From positions 96,001 through 160,000 of the forward strand of contig JAHLWS010000078.1 of NCBI GenBank assembly GCA_019057795.1: DNA of 64,000 nt. Reading direction: 5' to 3'. Shown here one piece after another: positions 26,325 through 64,000 of the stretch. A program made the translations under genes and the position numbers. A model generated the notes under the pieces. The model was given only the letters and a program-made list of their open reading frames with translations. It did no database searches and had not been told where the DNA came from. This DNA comes from Promethearchaeota archaeon. GTDB taxonomy: Archaea; Asgardarchaeota; Lokiarchaeia; Sigyniarchaeales; SOKP01. Positions within the stretch are counted from its first letter, which is position 1. Each line of letters opens with the position of its first letter.

Positions 26325-26996
26325 ATGACTGATACTAACTTTACTTTTTTATCCTTAGAAGATAGTATTTATGAAACTCCTTACTTGGATGATGATATAG
26401 ATGACGATATTCTTGAGTGGCATTCGATTGAAGGTGCTGAACGAATTAAGGAGCTTTCAAGACAATTACGAACATTTCTAAATTACAAGACATCAATGAT
26501 TTATTTAAGATTTTCAAGATCTCAGAATTGTGATCCCTTTCATAATAGAAATATGATTATAGAAAAGGAAAGAGAACTTAACATATTAACTTCACATCTT
26601 TTAGCTAATTTAAAAGAGATTGGTGTAGATGACGGAGATATTATTGGTGAGAAAATTCAAAGTCTATTTGATAAAATAAAGACCCTCCCAAATGAAATTG
26701 ATATAAACCGATTAAAAGATATAAAATCAATAAATAAAAAAATATGGGTGTTAATTCACATTTTATCTGAACTTGAGATTCATCATCACTCAAGGCTTTT
26801 TAATAGGATAACGAATATTGCCTGTATTTCTTGTGAAATTCAAAGCATATTGTTTCATCCTTTTTCAGAGTTCTATTATGAATTGAAAAGCAATTATCTT
26901 CTTTTAGTTAAGGAGATATCTGATTTACTAAGAATAAACAATAAGAACAAGGCTCCATCTATTAAAAATAAAAATAGGGAGAGAGTTCTTACATGA
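26325..26996 (+). CDS. Partner protein A of two-gene nuclease module (copy 1)
   Basis: W..IEGA..IKELSRQLRTF.NYKT shared with 58255-58869; ATGA overlap with next gene. Confidence 0.8.
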   Translation: MTDTNFTFLSLEDSIYETPYLDDDIDDDILEWHSIEGAERIKELSRQLRTFLNYKTSMIYLRFSRSQNCDPFHNRNMIIEKERELNILTSHLLANLKEIGVDDGDIIGEKIQSLFDKIKTLPNEIDINRLKDIKSINKKIWVLIHILSELEIHHHSRLFNRITNIACISCEIQSILFHPFSEFYYELKSNYLLLVKEISDLLRINNKNKAPSIKNKNRERVLT

Positions 26997-29821
26997 ATAC
27001 TAAAATTGAATCAGTAAATAGGGGAATGCTAAATGAGGAACGAATTGCAATTTGTTCCCATTTTGGATGTGGTACAATCAAAAAGGTTAAACCACTAAAA
27101 TTCGGTTCATTCGGATTTCGAAAATATCCTAAATGTTCAAAACACAAACTATCTTTAGTATTTGTCGATGAATTTGTAGAGCAATTTATTTGCTCTGTAA
27201 ATGCTTGTTTGTTTGATTTATCAAGCTTGCCACCTAAAGATTTGGTAAATTCTATTACTGAAGATGTTCCAGAAGAATTAGAATTATTTATCAATGTTTG
27301 GATGTATTGCAGTCCTATAGGACGAGGTGCTCAGATTATATCACGATATTTCGATGGACTTTCAAAGGGTTATATCAAATTACTCAGTCGTAAACAGAGA
27401 AAAGCAATTCAATGTGGAAAATCAAGCAAACGAAGTTACAATATGTTGCGTCAGGGATTAAAAAAAATTGCAGATGAATACACACTTTTCTTACAAGAGC
27501 TTCGTGTCGTATCGCACGATTATTGTGATCTAAATAAAGTACTTCCATTATCAAAAAAATCATGTGATATTATTAAAACCTGGCGAAAAAAACAATCAGT
27601 TAATAGAAGAAAGAAAAGTACTAAAGATGAAAATCTAAATGACATTTCATTATTAAAAAATGATTATGATGATATTCTACATTTAAGGACTTCTTCTTTT
27701 ATTATAGGAAAACCTCCTACAGAAAAAATATCTGCATTTGAGCTTTTTTCAGCTTATTTTGAATTTCTAAAGGAAGGTTTATGTAGCAAGCTAAAAAAAG
27801 AAAATATTCAACAAGTATTAAATATCCAAGAAACTAATACAGAGAACTCTTCATCTAAATCTCATTTAAGGCAAGAATTGTTAACCAATCTTTATGGTAT
27901 AATAGATTTAATAAACTTATATAATTCTGATCAAAAAGATGTAATGAAATCTAAATCTAAGGAAATACTAGAAGAATTCATATCCAGAATTGAACAAAAG
28001 GAATTTTATCTACCCAAAAATGCTAACTTAAGAGTTATTGCAAGTACGGTTGTATATACTACAGCTCTTTATGTTAAAAAATTGCCCATATTAACCACAA
28101 GAAAGATTGGAAACATTGCTGCTGCTACTCCCAGCAATATAAGTAGGTATTATAGAAGATATTTTGAGAAATTATATCCTCGAGAAAACTTTGAGATATA
28201 CGGATTTAAACGTATAAAATTAATTATTTCACTATATTTTTTTGAATTATTAAAGAATTCAAAGTTAAGAACATCCGAACTCATTTCAAACCTAGAAAAG
28301 GAGATATATAGTGAATTTTTTAAGGAAGAATTTGGAGAATATTTTACAAAAGACATTGAAATACTCCGTAATATGGTAACTCAATATCGAGATAAATTTA
28401 TTAAATACTTTTCTGATCTAGCTGAAATTGTTAAATTATTAGCAAATACAAGTAAAATTCATAAAGAAATTGGAGCAAAGGTATATCTCAAACCTATTAT
28501 CGACCTTTTAAATGAAGAAAACTTTAACTTGTTTCAAAAATCTCGTTTTGTTTTTTCCGTTAGAGAAATATATGATAGTTTAAGACATAAAAATCCGGAT
28601 CTTTTTCCTCCTCGAGCTTATCAAACAAAAGATAGAAATGTTACGAATAAACAGAGAACTAAAACCGATAAAGATTTGATAAGAATAATTGGAAGTAGAT
28701 TAAAAATATATGCCATAAAAAATATCTATAAAGGTAAGTATTTTAAAAACGGACAAGGAAAGTGTCAAGAATGTCAAGAAGAAAAAATGCTTATAAATAC
28801 CGACATTTCAAGATTGAATGCTCTAGAATTTCACCACACTTCTGAGAAAGAAAATCATTTTACTGCCAATAGACTTTATGAATTATTTACTAAAAATTTA
28901 CGTAATTTGAATTTGTTAGAATGGTTAATCGAGCTAATGGAAGCAGAAGAGGTGGTTCTTGTATGCAGAAATCACCATCGTATATTGGAAGAAAAGTACT
29001 ATGGATATTTTCATTATCTTATAAATTGGAAAAATTTATTCTGTTATCCACCAGAGGTAATACATGCACTCATTAGGATTTCAGTAGATACATTTTATAA
29101 AACAAAACGATTATCTGTAAACAAGAAAGCGGGTATTAGGGATGCAATTGCTAGATATATGAAAAAAAGGTATATTATAGAATTTTTTTATGGTGGTTCT
29201 TGTCATACTTGTGGAGAATTCCATACAAATAATCACTTACCAGCTTTCGTTTATCATCACAAAAATGAAGAGTCTAAAACGGTTAATATTAGTAAAGTAT
29301 ATCATCTTACTTGTTCTGAAATTATTCAAATCATTATAAAAGAGCAAGGTGGATATGTTTGTTCGAATTGTCATAGATTACTTCATTATAACAAATTTAT
29401 CCCCTTATTAGACGATATTTATAAAGATAAAAATATGATTAAAAGGATTATTAAAGACTATAATCGTATTCTCAGAGCATTTTCCCCCATTGAAAGTGTA
29501 GATATTAGAAAGAAGAGTCCTTTAATTAAACCTACTTTAGATACAGATAGCTTTATGAAGTTCTTAATAGCAATTTATGAGATTTCAAAGATGGGTAAAG
29601 AAGTCAATAATACTGAATTAAAAGAATATTTAAGCTATCACGATGTATCGTCCATAACAAGAATTTTTAGAAGAAAAGCTGATATTATTGGTAATTATAT
29701 CAGTATAATAAAAGGAGTTTCCAAATCTAGTCCTACTAAATACAAATTAAATGAAAAAGGAAAAAAAGTTATTTCCTTATTTCAAAAATTTAAGGATTTT
29801 TACGCTATTAGTTCAAATTAA
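26993..29821 (+). CDS. Module protein B (copy 1): conserved Cys/His N-terminal domain, TFIIB/cyclin-like helical region, two HNH-like domains, wHTH
   Basis: C..FGC...KPLK...PKC.KH; CQEC...LEFHH...CRNHH and CHTC...FVYHH...CSNCH; C-terminal KYKLNEKG. Confidence 0.75.
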   Translation: MNTKIESVNRGMLNEERIAICSHFGCGTIKKVKPLKFGSFGFRKYPKCSKHKLSLVFVDEFVEQFICSVNACLFDLSSLPPKDLVNSITEDVPEELELFINVWMYCSPIGRGAQIISRYFDGLSKGYIKLLSRKQRKAIQCGKSSKRSYNMLRQGLKKIADEYTLFLQELRVVSHDYCDLNKVLPLSKKSCDIIKTWRKKQSVNRRKKSTKDENLNDISLLKNDYDDILHLRTSSFIIGKPPTEKISAFELFSAYFEFLKEGLCSKLKKENIQQVLNIQETNTENSSSKSHLRQELLTNLYGIIDLINLYNSDQKDVMKSKSKEILEEFISRIEQKEFYLPKNANLRVIASTVVYTTALYVKKLPILTTRKIGNIAAATPSNISRYYRRYFEKLYPRENFEIYGFKRIKLIISLYFFELLKNSKLRTSELISNLEKEIYSEFFKEEFGEYFTKDIEILRNMVTQYRDKFIKYFSDLAEIVKLLANTSKIHKEIGAKVYLKPIIDLLNEENFNLFQKSRFVFSVREIYDSLRHKNPDLFPPRAYQTKDRNVTNKQRTKTDKDLIRIIGSRLKIYAIKNIYKGKYFKNGQGKCQECQEEKMLINTDISRLNALEFHHTSEKENHFTANRLYELFTKNLRNLNLLEWLIELMEAEEVVLVCRNHHRILEEKYYGYFHYLINWKNLFCYPPEVIHALIRISVDTFYKTKRLSVNKKAGIRDAIARYMKKRYIIEFFYGGSCHTCGEFHTNNHLPAFVYHHKNEESKTVNISKVYHLTCSEIIQIIIKEQGGYVCSNCHRLLHYNKFIPLLDDIYKDKNMIKRIIKDYNRILRAFSPIESVDIRKKSPLIKPTLDTDSFMKFLIAIYEISKMGKEVNNTELKEYLSYHDVSSITRIFRRKADIIGNYISIIKGVSKSSPTKYKLNEKGKKVISLFQKFKDFYAISSN

Positions 29822-29889: not shown

Positions 29890-31098
29890 ATGAAAGCTAT
29901 AGAATTAAGAGCAAAATGGGATCCTAAACCAGATTTCAAACTTGGTTTAAAGGATAATGATGGAAAGCTTACTTATCTCGGTTCTCAAGTTTGGAGAGGT
30001 CCACATATAAGTGTTGTGGATAAGGAAAAGCCAAAGATTCTTCCAAATGAAGTGCTTATCAGAGTAAAACGCTGTGGAATTCTTTAAAGATTTGTTTTAA
30101 AGAACACAATATGCGGCTCTGATGTTCATATGAATCAGGCTTACGATGATGGGTATATCTATTATCCTGGGCTAACAGCATTTCCAGTAACCCTCGGACA
30201 TGAATTTGCAGGAGAAATTGTTGAAGTAGGATCTCAAGCAATAAGTAAAAGGACTGGGAAACATTATGAAATAGGAGAGCCTGTAACCGTAGAAGAAATG
30301 GCATGGTGTGGTGAATGCAAACCTTGTTGTGATGGATATCCGAATCATTGCGAACGATTACAAGAAATTGGTTTTTCTATAGATGGAGCGTTTGCCGAGT
30401 ACATAACGGTTCCAGCAAAACTTTGTTGGAGTTTAAAGAAATTAGAAAGAAATTACGATGATGTTTTTAAAATTGGTAGCTTGGTTGAACCAACTTCAGT
30501 TGCTTTCAATGCAGTTATTGAGAGAGGTGGAGGCATTCGTCCAGGAGAAAATGTTATAATCTTGGGGGCTGGACCAATTGGATTAGTCTCTACTAAAATA
30601 TTGAAGACCGCAGGAGCGGGGTTATGCATTGTTTCAGAACCTGAAGAACATCGAGCGTCGTTAGCTAAACAAATGGGAGCCGACTATGTTATTAATCCTC
30701 TTAAAGAAAACTTTGTAGAAAAAGTAAAAGAATATACCGACAATGAAGGTGCAGCGCTATATCTTGAAGCTACAGGATTGCCACAAGTAGTAACTGATGA
30801 CATTCAAAATGCTATTTGGGAATGCAAGGCGGTTAATAGTACCGTCGTAATAGTTGCAAGAGCGGAACAAAGAATGCCAGTGTGTGGAGAGTTTTTTCAA
30901 GTCAAAAGGGCTAGAATTGTAGGAGCTCAAGGGCACTCAGGACACGGAACTTTTTTCAACGTAATTAGTTCGATGGCAGCTGGTATGGATGTTACTCCGA
31001 TGATTACAAAAGAAATTTCTCTTGAAGAAGTCCCAGAAAACATAAAACTTTTACAAACTGATAGAAAAAATTGCAAAATCTCCGCAATTATAAACTAA
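29890..31098 (+). CDS. iolM: scyllo-inosose 3-dehydrogenase, interrupted by a 30-nt insertion
   Basis: The 79-aa and 322-aa ORFs share a frame; AKWDPKPDFKLG...LTYLGSQVWR and YYPGLTAFPVTLGHEF match Thermotoga IolM; removing 30 nt restores VKRCGICGSDVH and a 392-aa protein. Confidence 0.88.
30080..30109 (+). other. 30-nt hairpin insertion with in-frame TAA; candidate BHB-type mRNA intron
   Basis: TTCTTTAAAG-ATTTG-TTTTAAAGAA stem; TGTG/CACA pairing; AAT direct repeat makes the boundaries slide by a few nt. Confidence 0.55.
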
Positions 31099-56189: not shown

Positions 56190-56534
56190 ATGACTAAACA
56201 CTACAAAAATGAACAAATAATGAAAATTTTAACGGTACTAGGAGCAATAGTAGGACTGGTATATATTATTAATGGTTTTGCTGGCTTAGCTGGAATGAGT
56301 TTTTTACCCATCATAGTCGACATTCAGCTTCTAGATAGAATAATCAGTTTAATTATTGGACTCGTAATTGTTATTTTAACATTTCTAGTAGCTTTAAAAC
56401 CAAATCAACCACTTCCGTTTCATTGGCTTGTATTAATAATCCTTGCGATATTGCTGGTGCTTTTTAGTGCGGGAATTTGGGCTTGTGTACTTGTAATAAT
56501 CGCGGCACTAATTGGTTTAATTGAAGAATTATAA
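56190..56534 (+). CDS. Small membrane protein
   Basis: 114 aa, strongly hydrophobic. Confidence 0.7.
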   Translation: MTKHYKNEQIMKILTVLGAIVGLVYIINGFAGLAGMSFLPIIVDIQLLDRIISLIIGLVIVILTFLVALKPNQPLPFHWLVLIILAILLVLFSAGIWACVLVIIAALIGLIEEL

Positions 56535-56581
56535 TTTTTTATTTTTTAAAATCAATTTTTTTTTGATTTACTACATGTAGG

Positions 56582-57451
56582 CTAGATACATGCATTTTTT
56601 AGGAAATACGATACGATTTCTTCTGCAAGGTTGATATCCGTTACTTTTTGCAGGGCGGTGAACCCTGGAATTGAATTTACTTCCAAAATTAATAAACCCT
56701 TTTCGCTTTCAACGATATCAACACCAGCAATTTCTGTTTTTGTAATTTTTGCTGCTTTTATTGCTAGCGTTTTTAACTCTTCTGTGAGTTCTAATGGCTC
56801 CATTCTTGCGCCTGCATGAATATTAGTTTTCCAATTATCACTTACTCTATACATTCCAGCTATAGCTTTATCACCTAAAACTAAAATTCGGATATCTCGA
56901 TTGTAATGTTCGATAAATTCTTGAATATAAAATACCTGGTTTAGTTGACTTAGAGTAAATATAACATTCTCTGCAAAGCCTTTATCGTTTATTCTGGTAA
57001 TTCCAACGCCTTTCGAACCATATAACGGTTTTAGTACGATATCTCCTCCAAACGCCTCAAATGCCTCTATGGCATCGTTGGGATTTTCGCAAATAATCGT
57101 TTTTGGAGTAGGGATGTTATGCCGATCTAAATAAATTGATGTTAAAAACTTATCACTAGCTATTTCTAGTGATTCTCGAGAGTTTATTAATTTAAGACCA
57201 TATTCCTCCATAGCGTTTAGTAGATCAAGCCTAAAAAAGATCTTTTGAGTAGCAGCAGCTCCAAAACCTCTTACAAGAGCGCCATATGGATCGAGCTTTT
57301 CAAATTGTTCTTGAAATTGCTTATTGTCTATTTTAACTTTTACTTTTGATGGAACGAAATATTTAACCTTATATCCTCTTTTTTCAAATTCTTTAGATAA
57401 AATTTGAACTTCAGGATCTTCCGGCTTTGGAGTAATTATCATGGAATACAC
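56582..57451 (-). CDS. RimK-family ATP-grasp glutamate ligase (MptN/CofF-like)
   Basis: KPLYGSKG, QEFI, DIR, WKTN, EVNSIPG. Confidence 0.9.
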   Translation of the reverse strand: MYSMIITPKPEDPEVQILSKEFEKRGYKVKYFVPSKVKVKIDNKQFQEQFEKLDPYGALVRGFGAAATQKIFFRLDLLNAMEEYGLKLINSRESLEIASDKFLTSIYLDRHNIPTPKTIICENPNDAIEAFEAFGGDIVLKPLYGSKGVGITRINDKGFAENVIFTLSQLNQVFYIQEFIEHYNRDIRILVLGDKAIAGMYRVSDNWKTNIHAGARMEPLELTEELKTLAIKAAKITKTEIAGVDIVESEKGLLILEVNSIPGFTALQKVTDINLAEEIVSYFLKNACI

Positions 57452-57525
57452 ATTTTATTACCTCTTAAAAAATTACTTAAATCAACTGACACTAAATAAA
57501 TAAATTTAAGTTCTTATATATATAT

Positions 57526-58128
57526 ATGAAGTCAATGGATTCGAAAGACGCAGAAAACGAAACGGAAAAATTAACAAAAGTACTTTCTATTGTTCAAAAT
57601 CTTTACTATAAGAAGAAGGAACAATTAGACGATTTAAAATTAGAAATCTCTGAATTACACATCGTTTTAGATTATTTAAACTCATTGATTTCAAAGCAAT
57701 CGTTTTCAAGTGCAGATGAAATTTATTCGAAGCTTTTAAATCGTGAAGAGAAAACGATTGATGATTATTTTAAAAAAGATATTTCACAGGAAGATTTTAA
57801 TGGAACTAACATTAAAAGAAAAATTTTCTCGAGCAAAAATCAGAATGAAGAAGATTTATTATGTGTGCTTAACCTCTACGACTTTAAAAGAGTTGAGATA
57901 AAATTTATTGATCCTGAAAAAAGGGAGATACAAGAAACTTCAGAGAATTTTATTAACATTTTTCTCAAGGGGGCACTTATTAAAATAAAAGAAAATAACC
58001 CTAATTTGAGCATTAATTACAATTTTTTCAAAAATTCCGATAAAGTTGAATATATTCACATATCTAATTTAAGTTCAATTGAAGACTATGATTTGATAAC
58101 GGACAAAATCCGCGAATTATTATATTAA
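57526..58128 (+). CDS. Hypothetical protein; host gene of the module insertion
   Basis: 200 aa; its 3' end recurs in diverged form at about 61325-61417. Confidence 0.75.
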   Translation: MKSMDSKDAENETEKLTKVLSIVQNLYYKKKEQLDDLKLEISELHIVLDYLNSLISKQSFSSADEIYSKLLNREEKTIDDYFKKDISQEDFNGTNIKRKIFSSKNQNEEDLLCVLNLYDFKRVEIKFIDPEKREIQETSENFINIFLKGALIKIKENNPNLSINYNFFKNSDKVEYIHISNLSSIEDYDLITDKIRELLY

Positions 58129-58171
58129 GATATTATATTGATTAATTAAAATACAAAGAATTAATTATACA
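58127..58171. repeat. Direct repeat, left copy
   Basis: AAGATATTATATTGATTAATTAAAATACAAAGAATTAATTATACA; recurs at 61469-61510 and 61520-61554. Confidence 0.9.
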
Positions 58172-58254
58172 AATTTTCATCATTGAATCTTTTTTTTTTG
58201 TTCTTTATAAATAACTGTGATAATTGTCTAGTAAATAATTTAAAACAATAAATT

Positions 58255-58869
58255 ATGACGGACAATATTGAAGAACATTATATTGAATCAGAATATGAAG
58301 AAATTTTTAATGATTGGTATGAAATTGAGGGCGCAAGAAAAATAAAAGAACTTTCACGCCAACTCCGAACTTTTTTCAATTACAAGACAGAATTAATAAG
58401 ATATCGATTTCGATCCAGTCCAAATCTTGCCGAAAATTATACAAATAATAAATTTTTTGCTCAAAAACAAAAGATTGAATCATTATCTGATGAATTTATA
58501 ACCCTTTTAAAAAAAATTAAGAAACATAGACAATCCCTTGAACAAGTAATTCGTTCTCTATTTTTTAATAATAATAAAACAGTATTAAACAAACTTTCAG
58601 AAATCACAGAGAAGTTGTCCATTCTACTCCACTATTTCTCAGAGGAATGCATTCATGATCATCCAAGATTCCTCAAATTCATCGTTGTATTAGCACAAAA
58701 CATTTGTTTGGTGAAAATGTGCTTGTATGCTGAATTCAGCGAATTTTATGGGGAACTTGAAGTTAACTACAATGGTTTAAATGGAGAAATGGAGATAATA
58801 TTAGAAGAAACGCTAGGAGATAAAATTAAAAAAACAAAAAATCAACTTGAGGAGAGATTGAGGATATGA
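58255..58869 (+). CDS. Partner protein A of two-gene nuclease module (copy 2)
   Basis: Homologous to 26325-26996; ATGA overlap. Confidence 0.8.
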   Translation: MTDNIEEHYIESEYEEIFNDWYEIEGARKIKELSRQLRTFFNYKTELIRYRFRSSPNLAENYTNNKFFAQKQKIESLSDEFITLLKKIKKHRQSLEQVIRSLFFNNNKTVLNKLSEITEKLSILLHYFSEECIHDHPRFLKFIVVLAQNICLVKMCLYAEFSEFYGELEVNYNGLNGEMEIILEETLGDKIKKTKNQLEERLRI

Positions 58870-61283
58870 AGGCATACACAAATGTATCACGGAAAACAGT
58901 GGAAGAGGATCGAGTAGCAGTCTGCCCAAATTTTGGGTGTGAGTTTATGACACGAGTTAAACCACTTAAGTTAAAGTTCTTAGGTTTTAGTAAGCATCCT
59001 AAATGCAAGAAACATCACATCCCTTTAGTTTACATAGATGAAAGGATCGGGGATTTCGTGGATGCTGCATTAGTATGCTTGTTTGATAAAGCAGGACTCC
59101 CACCACGTGAATTACTCGAGGGAGTAAAATCAAAATTCCCCAATGAAATTACCTCGTTTATAGAAGGATGGGTGTATAGCATCACGGTTGGAAGGGGAGC
59201 TCCCATTGTATCACGTTACATGGATGCCGTTTCGAATGCATATCTCAAGCAATTAACCAAAAAACAGATAAAATCATTGAAAAAAGGAAATAATTCAAAA
59301 CCAAATCTCGTGAAAAAAGCAATTAAGGATGGTCTGGATGAAATTGCACTTCAATATACAAGACTACTTAAGCATCTTAGAGCCCATTCCGAGATCCTCA
59401 TTGATCATCAAAGACTTAAATCACTTTCAAGAAGTCTCCAAAATTATTTGAATGATTGGCATAAGGATATTTTAAAGTATAATGAAATCATAATTTTCTC
59501 AGAAAATAAGCAAGAAATGACTTTAAAAGATATCAAGTGCAAATATGATCAAATTCTTAATGTTGGCACCTGTCGATGCCTTCTTGGATTAAATCCAGAA
59601 AGTAAAAAAATTAAGAAAACAAAATTAACTGCGTTTGATCGGTTTTCCGCTTATATAGAATTTTTTTCTGAAAGTATTACTGAAAAATTTACTAAGTCCG
59701 ATATTAAAGGACTTAACTCAGATATTAATCCAATTAAAAAGTCAATAAAAAAAATGAAATCGTACGATAATTTTGAAAGTGGTAATAGTCAAAAGATTAA
59801 GGAATATTTAAAAAATCTTGATTGGGAGAATTTAACTAACAATTGGACATTATTACATAGAGAACATCATACACATCCTTACAAGGAAATTCTGCTTGAT
59901 CCTCATAAAGATCCTTCCAATGAAAATCCTTTATGGAAACACGAAATTTGGTTGAAGCGAGTTTATGCTGATGAAAATTATAATTTTTCAGATAGTCTTA
60001 TTTCTCGAATCACTGGTATTGCTCGCGACACAGTCAGAAAATACCGTAGGAAATTTAATATTAGCAATGGCTACTACAACACGACTCAAAAACCAAAACT
60101 TAGTAAAGAATTGATTGAGAAAAGGGAGAAAATTCGCAATTTTAATTGGAACATTAATATTGATTGGATGATACCCGTCGGGATTCATGGAGATTTGTCA
60201 ATTCTTAACCCAAACAAATATTGTAGTTTTGATAATCCTTTATACAAGCATAAGCTATGGTTAAAAAGAGTCTACGAAGATGAAGAGCTTGATTTGAATG
60301 GAGTTGAGATTGCCAAAATATGCAGTCTTAAAGATCAGAAACCTATTAGTTATTGGAGAAAAAGATTAGGGATACCTAAAAAAAGAAAAGGTATTTTTCT
60401 AAATAAGTCAGGACATAAGTTGGTTCTCACTCCAAATTCCTATATACACCCTCAGCGTGGTAGACTCTATCAACGTGCTGAACATACACTAATCATGGAA
60501 AGATATTTAAATAAAAATCTATCAAGACGCCAATTAGCAACACATCCGGATTTGATTCAGGGATGGTTAGGAGAAGAGGAGTATTTTTATATAAAAAAAG
60601 ATTGTCATGTTCACCATATCAATTTTGTAGGTTTAGATAATAGAATCGAGAATCTTTGGTTATTTTCAAGTAATCGCGCACATGGATTAGTGGTTAATGA
60701 GCTACATCAATGCCTTTCAATTTTGATTAAGTTACATCAAATATTTTTTAAAGAGGGCATGTATTTTCTAAATGAAGATTTTGATTGTCTTCAGTTAGAA
60801 AGAGATGATATTCGGAGTAAGTTAAATCTTAATATTGTAATAAACCACTCTCTCTCTCGATTTTATGATAAGCGAAGAAATTCTTTTAGTGTAGCGATGT
60901 CTGCCTCCTATAACAATCCCTTTATTTCTCCAAAAAAAGGAATTGATTATGTTTATATGTATGAACATAGATATATCATCGAGCAATATTTTAGGACGCT
61001 TTTAAGAAAAGAGACTATATTACTAGAGGAGCACATTGATTATCAAAAAGCTCAAGAATTCATAAATCCACAAGGGTTTTTAAAACCCGATGCTATCGTG
61101 CACCATGTAAATTTCGATTCTCGAGATAATCGGTTATTAAATTTATATGTGTGTGAAATTTCTGAACATAGGCTTGTTCATGGATTAATTTACCAATTAG
61201 TCGAAAGATTACTTGATATGGGATTGATATATTTCAGTAATGGGAAATATTTTTTGGATAACACTTTGACTAATAAAATGTGA
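58866..61283 (+). CDS. Module protein B (copy 2): conserved N-terminal domain, two NPL..H..W/HTH repeats, two HNH endonuclease domains
   Basis: First ~280 aa align with 26993-29821; HHINF..LDNRIENL and HHVNF..RDNRLLNL. Confidence 0.85.
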   Translation: MKAYTNVSRKTVEEDRVAVCPNFGCEFMTRVKPLKLKFLGFSKHPKCKKHHIPLVYIDERIGDFVDAALVCLFDKAGLPPRELLEGVKSKFPNEITSFIEGWVYSITVGRGAPIVSRYMDAVSNAYLKQLTKKQIKSLKKGNNSKPNLVKKAIKDGLDEIALQYTRLLKHLRAHSEILIDHQRLKSLSRSLQNYLNDWHKDILKYNEIIIFSENKQEMTLKDIKCKYDQILNVGTCRCLLGLNPESKKIKKTKLTAFDRFSAYIEFFSESITEKFTKSDIKGLNSDINPIKKSIKKMKSYDNFESGNSQKIKEYLKNLDWENLTNNWTLLHREHHTHPYKEILLDPHKDPSNENPLWKHEIWLKRVYADENYNFSDSLISRITGIARDTVRKYRRKFNISNGYYNTTQKPKLSKELIEKREKIRNFNWNINIDWMIPVGIHGDLSILNPNKYCSFDNPLYKHKLWLKRVYEDEELDLNGVEIAKICSLKDQKPISYWRKRLGIPKKRKGIFLNKSGHKLVLTPNSYIHPQRGRLYQRAEHTLIMERYLNKNLSRRQLATHPDLIQGWLGEEEYFYIKKDCHVHHINFVGLDNRIENLWLFSSNRAHGLVVNELHQCLSILIKLHQIFFKEGMYFLNEDFDCLQLERDDIRSKLNLNIVINHSLSRFYDKRRNSFSVAMSASYNNPFISPKKGIDYVYMYEHRYIIEQYFRTLLRKETILLEEHIDYQKAQEFINPQGFLKPDAIVHHVNFDSRDNRLLNLYVCEISEHRLVHGLIYQLVERLLDMGLIYFSNGKYFLDNTLTNKM

Positions 61284-61324
61284 TTTCTTATTTCTATCAT
61301 CACATTGGATTAATATTTTAATTA

Positions 61325-61417
61325 ATCGAATACAATACTATTTCTAATTTAAGCGCTATCGAAGATTACGATTTAATAACCGCATAAATACGAGAATTAT
61401 TAACTCGTGAGATGTAA
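61325..61417 (+). pseudogene. Displaced 3' end of the 200-aa gene
   Basis: IEYNTISNLSAIEDYDLITA*IRELLTREM* versus VEYIHISNLSSIEDYDLITDKIRELLY*. Confidence 0.88.
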
Positions 61418-61468
61418 TCCATCTATAAAATGCGGATTAGATAAAGTTTGAATAGTATGTATTATATA

Positions 61469-61554
61469 AAGATATTATATTGATTCATTAAAATACAAAG
61501 AATTAATTATTTAAATTTAATTGATTAATTAAAATACAAAGAATTAATTATACA
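61469..61554. repeat. Direct repeat, two right copies
   Basis: Near-exact matches to 58127-58171. Confidence 0.9.
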
Positions 61555-61598
61555 GAGTTTTATATTATTTTTAATTAAAAATTTGGAGCGTATGAACA

Positions 61599-62414
61599 AT
61601 GGCTAAGAAGAAAAAATTTTTGATGATGCCTGTAATTCATTCAAAGTTTAACGATAAAACTCTCGAGAATATACTAATCAATAAATCGAGAACTCTCTTA
61701 ACAGAAAAGAAGGGTGCTGTCCCCTCGTTTATTTTTCTTTCTGGAAGTTTTTTTGATGTAAAAGGTTTTGTATACACGGGGCTTCGAGCATGGAAGGGTG
61801 CAGTAAAACCATCAAATAGCGATGAAGGTAGAAGGCCATTACTTGAAGCTACTTTCGCTTCTCTTTCAGTTTATCTAAGTTCATTACTTGCTCTACAAGC
61901 AGATTTTTACTTCGCTTACGAAGAGATCAAAGACATATTATTAGAAAAGAAAAGGGAAGATCTATGGACTATTGTATCAGAAAAATTACCATTTATTTCA
62001 CTCCCTCCAAAAGAAATGTATGGAAGCCAAGTTTCGCCAATATCTCCATACTTTGTAATCGAACAAGATGATGAACTCATATTAGGGGAGATATATCCAT
62101 CGGCTTATTTAACAAAAGTTATCTCTTCTATTAAGACCAGATTTTTCGTGTTTTTCCAGTATCAAGGATATTCCGCTTTTGGATTTTTCGATTCTTTACC
62201 TAAACATGCTAAGTTTGGTTTTGAGGAAAAAGCGAGAGAGTTTGAAGAAGAACCTACATCAGAAAACCTACAAAAGTATGCTAATAATGCTAAAAATTTA
62301 AAAGAAGTTCTAATCGCGCTCATCGAAGCGCATAATAATGCGTATTTAGGACAGTATTTAATTGAGGATTACGAACTCCTATTAAATAAACTACTAGAAT
62401 CGGAGGACCTATAA
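61599..62414 (+). CDS. Hypothetical protein, probably co-transcribed with the GTPase
   Basis: 271 aa; 1-nt gap to next gene. Confidence 0.7.
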   Translation: MAKKKKFLMMPVIHSKFNDKTLENILINKSRTLLTEKKGAVPSFIFLSGSFFDVKGFVYTGLRAWKGAVKPSNSDEGRRPLLEATFASLSVYLSSLLALQADFYFAYEEIKDILLEKKREDLWTIVSEKLPFISLPPKEMYGSQVSPISPYFVIEQDDELILGEIYPSAYLTKVISSIKTRFFVFFQYQGYSAFGFFDSLPKHAKFGFEEKAREFEEEPTSENLQKYANNAKNLKEVLIALIEAHNNAYLGQYLIEDYELLLNKLLESEDL

Positions 62415-62415
62415 A

Positions 62416-63048
62416 ATGGTGAATATTGGGCTTTTGGGTGATATCTCTGTCGGAAAAACTAGTATTCTCCGTTTATTCGTAAGATATTTAAAAGTTGGTG
62501 ACATAGAAAAAGTTAAGGGGGGACAAAAATGTACAGTAATAAAAGCAGATTTTTCAGGAGAGGCAACAGTGCCGGGAGGAGATAAAGAAGATAAACTTAA
62601 TCAAAAAGAAACGAAAACAATCCATCCAAATAGGATTGTTTTTAGAGAAGATAAATCGGGAAAAGCACATACAATCTTCGCACCAGGAGGAGATCGGAAA
62701 CGAAGTGTAATTCGAATGGGAATTATAACGATATCCCGAATCGCAACCCAGATAATAGCGATCTTTTCGTGCGATAGAGATGTAAAAACTCAATTTGAAT
62801 TTTTCAACGATGTTCGATTTTTCCCAGATAAAATTAATCTTTGTATAAATAAAGTAGATTTACTTAAAGGCGATAAAAAGAATAAACTAGAGAAATTGGA
62901 AACAGAAATTATAGATTTTTTTAAGACAAGAAAAATACAAATAGTAGAGACCTTTATAACATGTGGTGAAAGTGTGGAAGGGTTTGAGGATGTCCAGATT
63001 TATAACGACCGCGTCGTAGAGATGATCCTAAGAATTATTACTCAATAA
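62416..63048 (+). CDS. Small GTPase with atypical G3 (MglA-like)
   Basis: GDISVGKT, T in G2, FAPGG at G3, NKVD. Confidence 0.8.
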   Translation: MVNIGLLGDISVGKTSILRLFVRYLKVGDIEKVKGGQKCTVIKADFSGEATVPGGDKEDKLNQKETKTIHPNRIVFREDKSGKAHTIFAPGGDRKRSVIRMGIITISRIATQIIAIFSCDRDVKTQFEFFNDVRFFPDKINLCINKVDLLKGDKKNKLEKLETEIIDFFKTRKIQIVETFITCGESVEGFEDVQIYNDRVVEMILRIITQ

Positions 63049-63157
63049 CCAGTTTAAGTGGCATGGTAGAATCTCTGATCTTTTTCTGGAATTTGCGGGA
63101 CTCTTCTTCGATTTTTCATTGTTCTCTGATTCTTCTGGAAATGGGGGCTAAAACCCC
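63038..63157 (-). pseudogene. Orphan 3' gene end next to the HNH gene
   Basis: GVLAPISRRIREQ*KIEEESRKFQKKIRDSTMPLKLVIE*; GC-richer than normal intergenic DNA. Confidence 0.5.
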
Positions 63158-63170
63158 GAAATTTTTCTTT

Positions 63171-64000
63171 TTACTCTTCATAATTTAAATAATATTTACC
63201 CTTCTTGAAAGAGAGTAAACCAGATTGTATTAGCGGGCTAACGGTGTCTAATAAGCTCGCATGTACAGAATTGTGCCCCTTATGTTCTTCACAAACCCAT
63301 AAGTTTTTTAATCGATTATCTAGGGTAACAAGGTTGATATGATGAACTTTATATTCTGATTTTAAGAATTTTCCATCAAGAAGGCTATTTTGAGAGATCC
63401 CCAATTCAAGATGTTTCGCTAAATAGTTTTCTATTACATAGCGATGTTCAAGCATTATATTTTGTCTACTGAGCTTTATTGCGAATGGGTTTTTGTAATC
63501 ATTTGGTATTTTTCTCCATATACGATCACCAGCGCTCTCGCTTCTCTTAATGGTGCGAATATTTCCCCATCGTTCATAATAAGTTGGAATTTTATGATGA
63601 TTCCATCTCCATTTATATGCTGTGGACTCTGAAATGCCGCATACTTTCGCGAGCCGTGGATCTGTCAAGTTATATTGTTTTTCTCTGACGATGGTTTCCA
63701 TCCAAAACTTATTTCTATAAAGTGGATTTTCTTTTGAGCAGTCCTTGTAGGGATCAACTGTCATACTAACTTGTCCATATTGATTAGAATTTTTCCACAC
63801 ATTCCAATCGTTAGGGACATGATCCCAATCGAGTGTTTTTATTTGGTGTTTTATTTCTTTTATACTCATATCACCTTTAAATTCAGCAGGCTTAATTATT
63901 TCCTTAATTTCTGAGAGATCTAGCGTTTTATAATCGAATTTGTAGTTTACATTGTATTTTCCCTCATTAAATTGGATTTGACTAAGTTTATATAAGCAAC
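63171..64000 (-). pseudogene. C-terminal part of a frameshifted HNH-repeat protein related to 58866-61283, running off the window
   Basis: LDWD...DPYKD..KENPLY...HHINL..LDNRLKNL; upstream in another frame LYKLSQIQFNEGKY matches IKLHQIFFKEGMY; frameshift near 63925. Confidence 0.75.

Follow-up and report, generated by a model that had tools for sequence, protein, structure and literature searches.

In intronless homing, free-standing endonuclease genes such as the seg and mob genes of phage T4 (mobE, for example) cut an endonuclease-free genome near the insertion site and spread with co-conversion of flanking markers. Homing elements that duplicate the end of a host gene, and so keep that gene whole, have been documented in yeast nuclei and in fungal mitochondria. 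At the FBA1 locus of Torulaspora and Lachancea yeasts, where the homing logic has been shown experimentally, WHO elements consist of a free-standing endonuclease gene lying past the host gene, with a fragment of the host gene's 3′ end downstream that provides a second region of homology and may decay; after homing the host gene is chimeric, the fragments can travel with the element to other places, and diverse members revisit the locus (Coughlan et al. 2020, eLife, PMC7282813). In fungal mitochondria, mobile open reading frames (mORFs) occur with duplicated C-termini in atp6, atp9, cox2 and nad3 of Glomus and in atp6 of Allomyces macrogynus, and the inserted and native C-terminal copies differ mostly at synonymous sites, a pattern read as horizontal transfer of the gene end along with the reading frame (Beaudet et al. 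2013, PMC3630166, citing Paquin et al. 1994). A full-text literature search found no archaeal chromosomal example of gene-end-duplicating homing elements. Here we describe a two-gene cassette of 3.1 kb in a 64,000-nucleotide (nt) stretch of DNA from a Promethearchaeota archaeon (the window). Judging from sequence comparison, the cassette is probably mobile, a free-standing unit of homing type that belongs to Loki-type Asgard archaea, and the orphan gene end behind it would be a travelling relic from another species group.

The window covers positions 96001–160000 of contig C78 in the genome studied (G000; a 4.95-Mb assembly with 31% G+C). Other G numbers denote relatives, JABUBN stands for JABUBN010000286, and ENA NODE_489 is a metagenome contig. 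G000, G020, G042, G050, G051 and JABUBN form a clade in which the genes flanking the cassette are 90–97% identical at the nucleotide level; the flanking genes of G004, G008, G011, G012, G015 and ENA NODE_489 are 73–84% identical to those of the G000 clade. Protein homologues were found solely in metagenome bins of Promethearchaeota (Loki-type Asgard), with ‘Loki_b31’ among the close relatives.

The insertion and the repeated gene end

The cassette stands between two host genes, which we call q200 and q271 after the lengths of their products (Table 1). Orthologues of q200 were found in 28 of the 41 relatives searched, with rimK adjoining every time; Pfam assigned no family to q200, to q271 or to the 204-residue partner protein encoded by the first cassette gene (q204). 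G020 and no fewer than eight further species have rimK, q200 and q271 contiguous, with a spacer of 150–170 nt and no module; from these cassette-free genomes the module can be recognized directly as an insertion, and its boundaries were set by aligning it with empty sites and sister cassettes. The spacer is occupied in G000, G042, G050, G051, JABUBN, ENA NODE_489 and G041. Since the same architecture is seen in four further independent assemblies (G042, G050, G051 and JABUBN010000286), it is not an assembly artefact. The first cassette gene begins 127 nt past the q200 stop, outside the q200 reading frame, and an Rfam intron scan of 56500–64000 gave no match at E ≤ 0.1; on these two grounds a group I or II intron or an intein context was rejected.

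Table 1. Features of the q200–q271 region, in window coordinates
Feature	Position	Strand	Basis
rimK-like ATP-grasp gene	56582–57451	−	
q200, 200-residue host gene with genus-wide conservation, target or neighbour of the cassette	57526–58128	+	open reading frame
Copy A, attached q200 3′ end, resident-clade type	58048–58122	+	
Deletion joint, GAATTATTA joined to TATTAA; new gene end ...ELLY and stop	58114–58128	+	alignment with G020, G042, G051
Left copy of spacer/promoter-like segment (29-mer at 58137–58165), now 5′ of the cassette	58123–58179	+	
Cassette proper: left end TCATTG..., own TATA-like motif, two genes, 40-nt right end	58180–61323	+	
q204, 204-residue partner gene	58255–58869	+	open reading frame; 4-nt overlap with q805
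q805, gene of 805-residue protein	58866–61283	+	open reading frame
Swapped segment, N-domain coding part from another cassette subfamily (q204 likewise)	58866–59540	+	
Copy B, foreign-type orphan 3′ end of q200, from codon 175 to the stop	61324–61417	+	
Foreign 3′ untranslated region and spacer, ending inside promoter-like motif	61418–61511	+	
Right joint (TTAAATTTA filler), resident promoter-like motif (61520–61548) and q271 leader	61512–61598	+	
q271, 271-residue downstream host gene, directly beside q200 in cassette-free genomes	61599–62414	+	
Small GTPase-like gene	62416–63048		

The end of q200 (copy A) is repeated behind the cassette at 61328–61402, where a repeat search matched 75 nt at 75% identity. 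At the protein level VEYIHISNLSSIEDYDLITDKIRELL is matched by IEYNTISNLSAIEDYDLITA followed by a stop and IRELL (26 residues, 77% identical), with tblastn E-values of 1.9e-7 against the 2.5-kb flanks and 1.3e-5 against the whole genome. A first-pass annotation, made from the sequence alone, had noticed this recurrence and put it at about 28 codons, slightly longer than the 25–26 that we find. It had also reported an internal stop, which is the TAA at 61385–61387; relatives carry AAA (Lys) there, and downstream of it the orphan frame continues to ...IRELLTREM, with a stop at 61415–61417. The duplicated downstream sequence of about 45 bp that it described is likewise present, as a 59-nt repeat between 58118–58176 and 61460–61518 (93% identical), with a third copy at 61501–61559 (80%), 41 nt further on. 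These copies share a core 29-mer, ATTGATTAATTAAAATACAAAGAATTAAT, at 58137, 61479 and 61520, a promoter-like motif that lies 50–80 nt 5′ of q271 in all relatives. The sequence resembling G020 begins at the last of these positions.

Comparison with the two species groups separates the two ends. Copy A is 98.6% identical to the empty G020, 100% to G042 and about 80% to the other species group. The coding part of the orphan is 89–93% identical to G011, G004, G008 and ENA NODE_489 and 71% identical to G020 and to copy A; together with its spacer it forms a 195-nt stretch that has 91% identity to G008 and G011 and shows their indel pattern, and the spacer continues the orphan exactly as in the unoccupied allele of the G004/G008/G011 group. 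A similar picture comes from the sister orphan of G051, which matches the native end of q200 in ENA NODE_489 at 136 of 137 positions. Alignment to the two groups thus identifies the orphan, with about 95 nt of the spacer behind it, as foreign, and the attached end as being of the resident clade's type. The TAA is present in the orphans of G000, G042 and JABUBN and absent from those of G050 and G051, and the orphan is therefore decaying.

The first-pass annotation had the module arriving with a foreign gene end that displaced the resident one. Insertion and a foreign copy of the end are both borne out, but the polarity is the reverse of that proposed. Terminus replacement in its canonical form, with the attached end brought in by the cassette and the orphan being the host's own displaced end, is the model for WHO elements and mORFs (PMC7282813, PMC3630166) and is seen on the same contig at an HD-domain gene and at an insertion of a 797-residue HNH gene beside the GTPase gene, both described below. 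At q200 it is very unlikely, as the attached end is nearly or fully identical to its clade, never-invaded G020 included, and the orphan resembles a group whose flanking genes are 16–27% different. One observation from G050 speaks for it in part: the gene-side spacer copy there differs from the resident copy, so that a donor can supply the attached side. In the G000 clade the end joined to q200 may accordingly be truly resident, or it may be cassette-borne but originally of this clade, and the G050 spacer indel favours the latter. Direct repeats on both sides of an insert would also be expected from a local tandem duplication of gene end and spacer that diverged in place with no foreign DNA; we rejected this scarcely credible origin because the differences in the orphan match the G004, G008, G011 and ENA alleles site by site, spacer indels included.

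Nor was the gene end ‘recoded’, as had been thought: the synonymous differences between the two ends are ordinary divergence between orthologues of different species, with no rewriting. Module-less relatives had been expected to end in ...IRELLTREM; native q200 ends read ...IRELLACEK in the resident group and ...IRELLAREM in the foreign group (G004, G008 and the ENA contig). As a separate observation, q200 itself has a synonymous divergence (dS) of 0.06–0.11 among cassette bearers compared to 0.33–0.49 for rimK and 0.19–0.34 for q271, which hints at co-transfer or co-conversion with the cassette, though we do not rely on it, dS varying widely among genes of this clade.

The choice of site is strict. 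Full-length homologues of the C-terminal 522 residues of the large cassette protein (69–84% identical) occur in G042, G050, JABUBN010000286, ENA NODE_489 and G041, and the cassettes that encode them lie solely in the q200–q271 spacer, those with other C-termini going to other places. Together with G000 these six hosts span three lineages, with q200 proteins 93–95%, about 86% and 68% identical to that of G000. G042, G051, JABUBN, ENA NODE_489 and G041 have a common left joint, ending in ...GATAAAGTTT, which lies about 45–75 nt past the q200 stop depending on the host. ENA NODE_489 and G041 are clean insertions lacking an orphan. Vertical inheritance in synteny, which the first-pass annotation had named as the finding that would speak against it, describes half of this distribution: the cassette is syntenic in G042, G050, G051 and JABUBN, is missing in G020, and occupies this spacer with other junctions in two distant lineages.

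A rearranged version of the locus is found in G015 (contig C212, 25700–36700), where the q271–GTPase pair is inverted relative to q200. At the breakpoint lies a remnant of 20 residues, 85% identical to the end of the 805-residue protein, which resembles a relic cassette tied to the rearrangement.

Junctions and exchanged segments

The left side of the G000 cassette has been altered in two ways. G020, G042 and G051 retain the native ...IRELLACEK, the stop and the untranslated region after it, which in G042, G051 and JABUBN runs up to GATAAAGTTT. In G000, q200 is without its native last four codons (ACEK) with the stop and about 70 nt of 3′ untranslated region, and the gap is bounded by two ATTATTA repeats. 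After the joint come a copy of the spacer/promoter-like segment and the cassette, in that order, and it is because this copy follows the deletion joint that there is a left member of the downstream repeat described above.

The second alteration lies within the cassette. Here q204 and the part of q805 coding for the N-terminal domain (N-domain) are 75–81% identical to cassettes at the same site, and the N-domain part, 75% identical to these, is 84% identical to cassettes from other sites; from about 59540 on, the sequence is 87–89% identical to that of its site-mates. The dS between G000 and G042 is correspondingly 2.3 in the N-domain part compared to 0.27 in the C-terminal part. Because of this break in identity and dS we take the left third of the G000 cassette to have been exchanged by recombination with another cassette. 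The best matches to it are 81–84% identical, and the donor is absent from the sampled data.

On the right, the joint with its tandem promoter-like motif is common to G042, G051, JABUBN and G000. G050 has a different one, in which the foreign spacer ends in ...CATTAAAAT and is followed, after a TTAAAAT microhomology, by the complete resident spacer from the q200 stop onwards; the resident untranslated region is thus found on both sides of the cassette, in two copies that differ by an 8-nt indel. Counting the left joint of G000, the joints take at least three forms in genomes with 90–97% identity elsewhere, and junctions that differ directly between such close relatives suggest repeated targeted events. 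A simple Campbell-type single crossover of a circle does not account for the whole arrangement and was rejected in that role, since the joints on the two sides are at non-homologous positions and the resident spacer is duplicated in G050.

These joints also bear on whether the cassette could be an element driven by an integrase or transposase with its attachment site in the gene end. The order of gene end, element and displaced end does resemble attL and attR with a substitute end, as carried by the prophages e14 and phage 21 in icd of E. coli. Pfam, in agreement with the first-pass annotation, found no integrase, transposase or recombinase domain in either cassette protein; a fold search with the N-domain gave no match; the cassette ends showed neither inverted nor identical direct terminal repeats; and the joints vary among sister genomes. 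We consider an origin of this kind most unlikely, and rejected it for lack of a recombinase domain and of terminal repeats and for the variable joints.

The cassette family and orphan ends across the genome

The two-gene unit is not confined to q200. There are six copies in the G000 genome, with an upstream motif conserved across them, and 20 of the 42 genomes of the genus carry the unit, in up to nine copies. In each of the 26 cassettes compared the 204-residue partner gene lies 5′ of the large gene, and what is conserved throughout the family is the partner protein together with the ~285 N-terminal residues of the large protein (70% mean column identity in the N-domain alignment). In q805 the N-domain (residues 1–285), with CPxFGC...KCxxH motifs of zinc-ribbon-like type, is followed by two helix-turn-helix-like units and two HNH domains. 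The first of these matches Pfam HNH_3 (PF13392) at residues 575–603 (36.7 bits against a cut-off of 24.8, E = 3.2e-9), and a second HHVN...DNR..NL motif near residues 760–790 was recognized by eye only. The remainder of the large protein differs among copies and relatives, comprising HNH_3, LAGLIDADG_3 with an intein-type domain, PD-(D/E)XK, exonuclease or winged-helix domains; for instance, one family copy (G000, contig C54, 9212–11374) has LAGLIDADG_3 replacing HNH after the same conserved N-domain. An AlphaFold2 (AF2) model of the N-domain (predicted local distance difference test score, pLDDT, 80) has a zinc-ribbon-like start and a helical body, but the search of this fold against the PDB gave no match at E ≤ 0.001, so that no function can be assigned to it. 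Five complete sister cassettes have intact frames of 798–808 residues, that of G050 being cut by the contig end, and the ratio of nonsynonymous to synonymous divergence (dN/dS) in the nuclease part of the sister cassettes is 0.35.

Two further loci on the same contig (contig coordinates from here on, except where the window is named) carry displaced gene ends of the canonical kind. The GTPase gene that follows q271 is a chimera, codons 1–94 being resident-like (92% identical to G020 in nucleotides) and codons 95–210 resembling G008, G012 and G014 (83% to G008 compared to 77% to G020). Between it and its displaced end lies the 797-residue HNH gene, on the opposite strand (159171–161564); the displaced end itself, from codon 111, is a start-less open frame at 161663–161986, the protein of which is 88.7% identical to G020 and 57.7% to G008. 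JABUBN has the same arrangement as G000, and HNH genes stand at this same site in G012 and G014, with the second allele type and no orphan. A similar example is the HD-domain gene (186811–187401), which is followed by a cassette encoding proteins of 203 and 1122 residues (186811–191695 including the gene and its orphan end). Among the cassette bearers G000, G020 and G042 the attached last 56 codons are 99–100% identical, but to those of G005, G051 and G050, clade members in which the site is empty, they are only 78–84% identical. The orphan (191528–191695), which the native ends of these three match at 86–94%, is an end of resident type; it lies directly past the cassette stop and has no internal stop. 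At both loci, as read from these alignments, the canonical pattern of an attached imported end and a displaced resident end holds. The terminus replacement that the first-pass annotation proposed as general is therefore found at the HD and GTPase genes, with the polarity reversed at q200. In G005 the HD gene has a hybrid, partly converted end.

Other arrangements were seen in passing. A third cassette, on the minus strand (169121–173881), lies beside an ACR3-like transporter gene. On its far side both the upstream region and the last 24 codons of this gene recur, and together they resemble a second gene copy with almost all of its body deleted. In the window, an alcohol-dehydrogenase-like gene lies 3′ of a cassette at 26325–29821 and is interrupted, in the region 29990–30130, by a 30-nt, stop-carrying insert between ...KRCGI and CGSDVH.

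We scanned the genome for orphan ends by comparing the first and last 60 residues of 4297 open reading frames with the DNA within 12 kb on the same strand, excluding full paralogues, and obtained 37 candidates in which a gene is followed by an insert and an orphan end. Orphan blocks were found at three of eight nuclease-family genes compared to 50 of 4289 other open reading frames (odds ratio about 51, Fisher p = 9.5e-5), an enrichment beside nuclease genes that the first-pass annotation had predicted. A fourth family member (170413–173576) has flank repeats and was missed by the scan. The nuclease-free blocks hold MNT/HEPN pairs, a TGT/DUF6884 pair and GNAT, MFS, GH4, esterase, peptidase and TPR genes; the MNT/HEPN toxin–antitoxin blocks lie on contigs C15 (23903–24710) and C62 (14523–15490), and the TGT/DUF6884 block on C13 (29873–31656). 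Foreign DNA and accessory genes seem to enter this genome by a general route, one-sided homologous plus illegitimate recombination.

The same route could have brought in the q200 cassette as passive cargo, by uptake of foreign DNA and one-sided homologous plus illegitimate recombination with the nuclease uninvolved. The blocks lacking any nuclease are in keeping with this, as are the microhomologies of 5–9 nt used by the joints at the q200 locus. What makes it unlikely is the perfect association of nuclease type with this spacer, which holds for six hosts across three lineages and comes with a common left joint, together with the roughly 50-fold enrichment of orphan blocks at the nuclease family and the several joint variants among near-identical genomes.

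A homing-type cassette can be reconciled with these observations by a mechanism modelled on the yeast WHO elements, which we regard as the simplest common one (PMC7282813). The nuclease would cut a cassette-free allele in or near the q200 end, the gene-side end would invade a cassette-bearing copy for homologous repair, and synthesis would copy the donor's gene end and the cassette. Capture of the far end through downstream homology would give a clean insertion, and capture through microhomology would strand the recipient's old end behind the cassette. A displaced end could later travel as the donor's right flank, or homology arm, like the FBA1 fragments of WHO elements. During an earlier stay in a host of G004/G008/ENA type, that host's own end from codon 175 would have been displaced, to be transferred later into the G000 clade; the orphan and its spacer to about 61511 of the window would then be a piece of that host's unoccupied allele, now decaying by way of the TAA. 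In G000 the attached end would have been shortened by deletion between the ATTATTA repeats as the left third of the cassette was exchanged.

Several points weigh against this account. The cassette in G000 is inherited, being present also in G042, G050, G051 and JABUBN, and is no new arrival. The orphan segments are short (95 nt coding and 95 nt spacer), so that the identities rest on few sites. About 30 of the 37 orphan-end blocks are without a nuclease, and orphan ends, strongly enriched at the nuclease family yet not exclusive to it, can arise without a homing enzyme. The role of the HNH protein is one we infer from its domain and from site fidelity, and cleavage by it, its target site and the order of the host jumps are likewise deductions from the comparisons above; the mobility activity could reside instead in the partner protein or in the N-domain. 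The mechanism predicts an intermediate in which a host of the foreign type would carry a replaced q200 end and, after it, the cassette and the end displaced from that host. One metagenome scan and one genome scan did not find it, the pattern of the cassette/orphan joint, GGATTAATAYTTTAATTAATCGAATA, occurring there only in the known resident-clade genomes and JABUBN010000286.

A broader scheme is conceivable but doubtful. The conserved two-protein core (the 204-residue partner and the 285-residue N-domain) might provide the mobility function, with exchangeable nuclease heads choosing the site and displaced ends serving as portable homology arms. The cassettes might then form an undescribed class of cellular homing elements, which would record the species they have passed and move across 20–25% gene divergence.

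Relation to known homing elements

Elements of this kind have consequences for their hosts and for those who study them. They leave chimeric host genes, such as the GTPase gene, and carry short stretches of foreign gene and promoter sequence from one species to another. The orphan gene ends could be mis-annotated as pseudogenes or assembly errors, and they can be used for tracing an element's earlier hosts. The reversed polarity at q200 calls for caution, as an orphan end need not be the host's former end.

Phage intronless homing shares with the q200 cassette a free-standing HNH or GIY-YIG gene lying between conserved genes. Unlike the present case, the phage examples have no duplicated gene end, and they act during co-infection, not between cellular chromosomes.

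The fungal mitochondrial mORFs are closer, with an endonuclease open reading frame at the 3′ end of a gene between two copies of its C-terminus. They differ in being organellar, in encoding LAGLIDADG or GIY-YIG enzymes and in often being fused in frame to the gene, whereas the Asgard cassette lies in the spacer; and the native end is downstream in mORFs, an order that is reversed at q200.

With WHO elements the cassette shares an endonuclease gene after the host gene and, after that, a fragment of the host gene's 3′ end. Unlike them it resides in an archaeal chromosome, carries HNH in place of the intein-derived LAGLIDADG and zinc finger of WHO, and is a two-gene unit with a conserved N-domain without a fold match; the orphan at q200 is moreover foreign and the attached end of resident type. 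By analogy in architecture, we regard the Asgard cassettes as an archaeal counterpart of the yeast WHO elements and the fungal mitochondrial mORFs.

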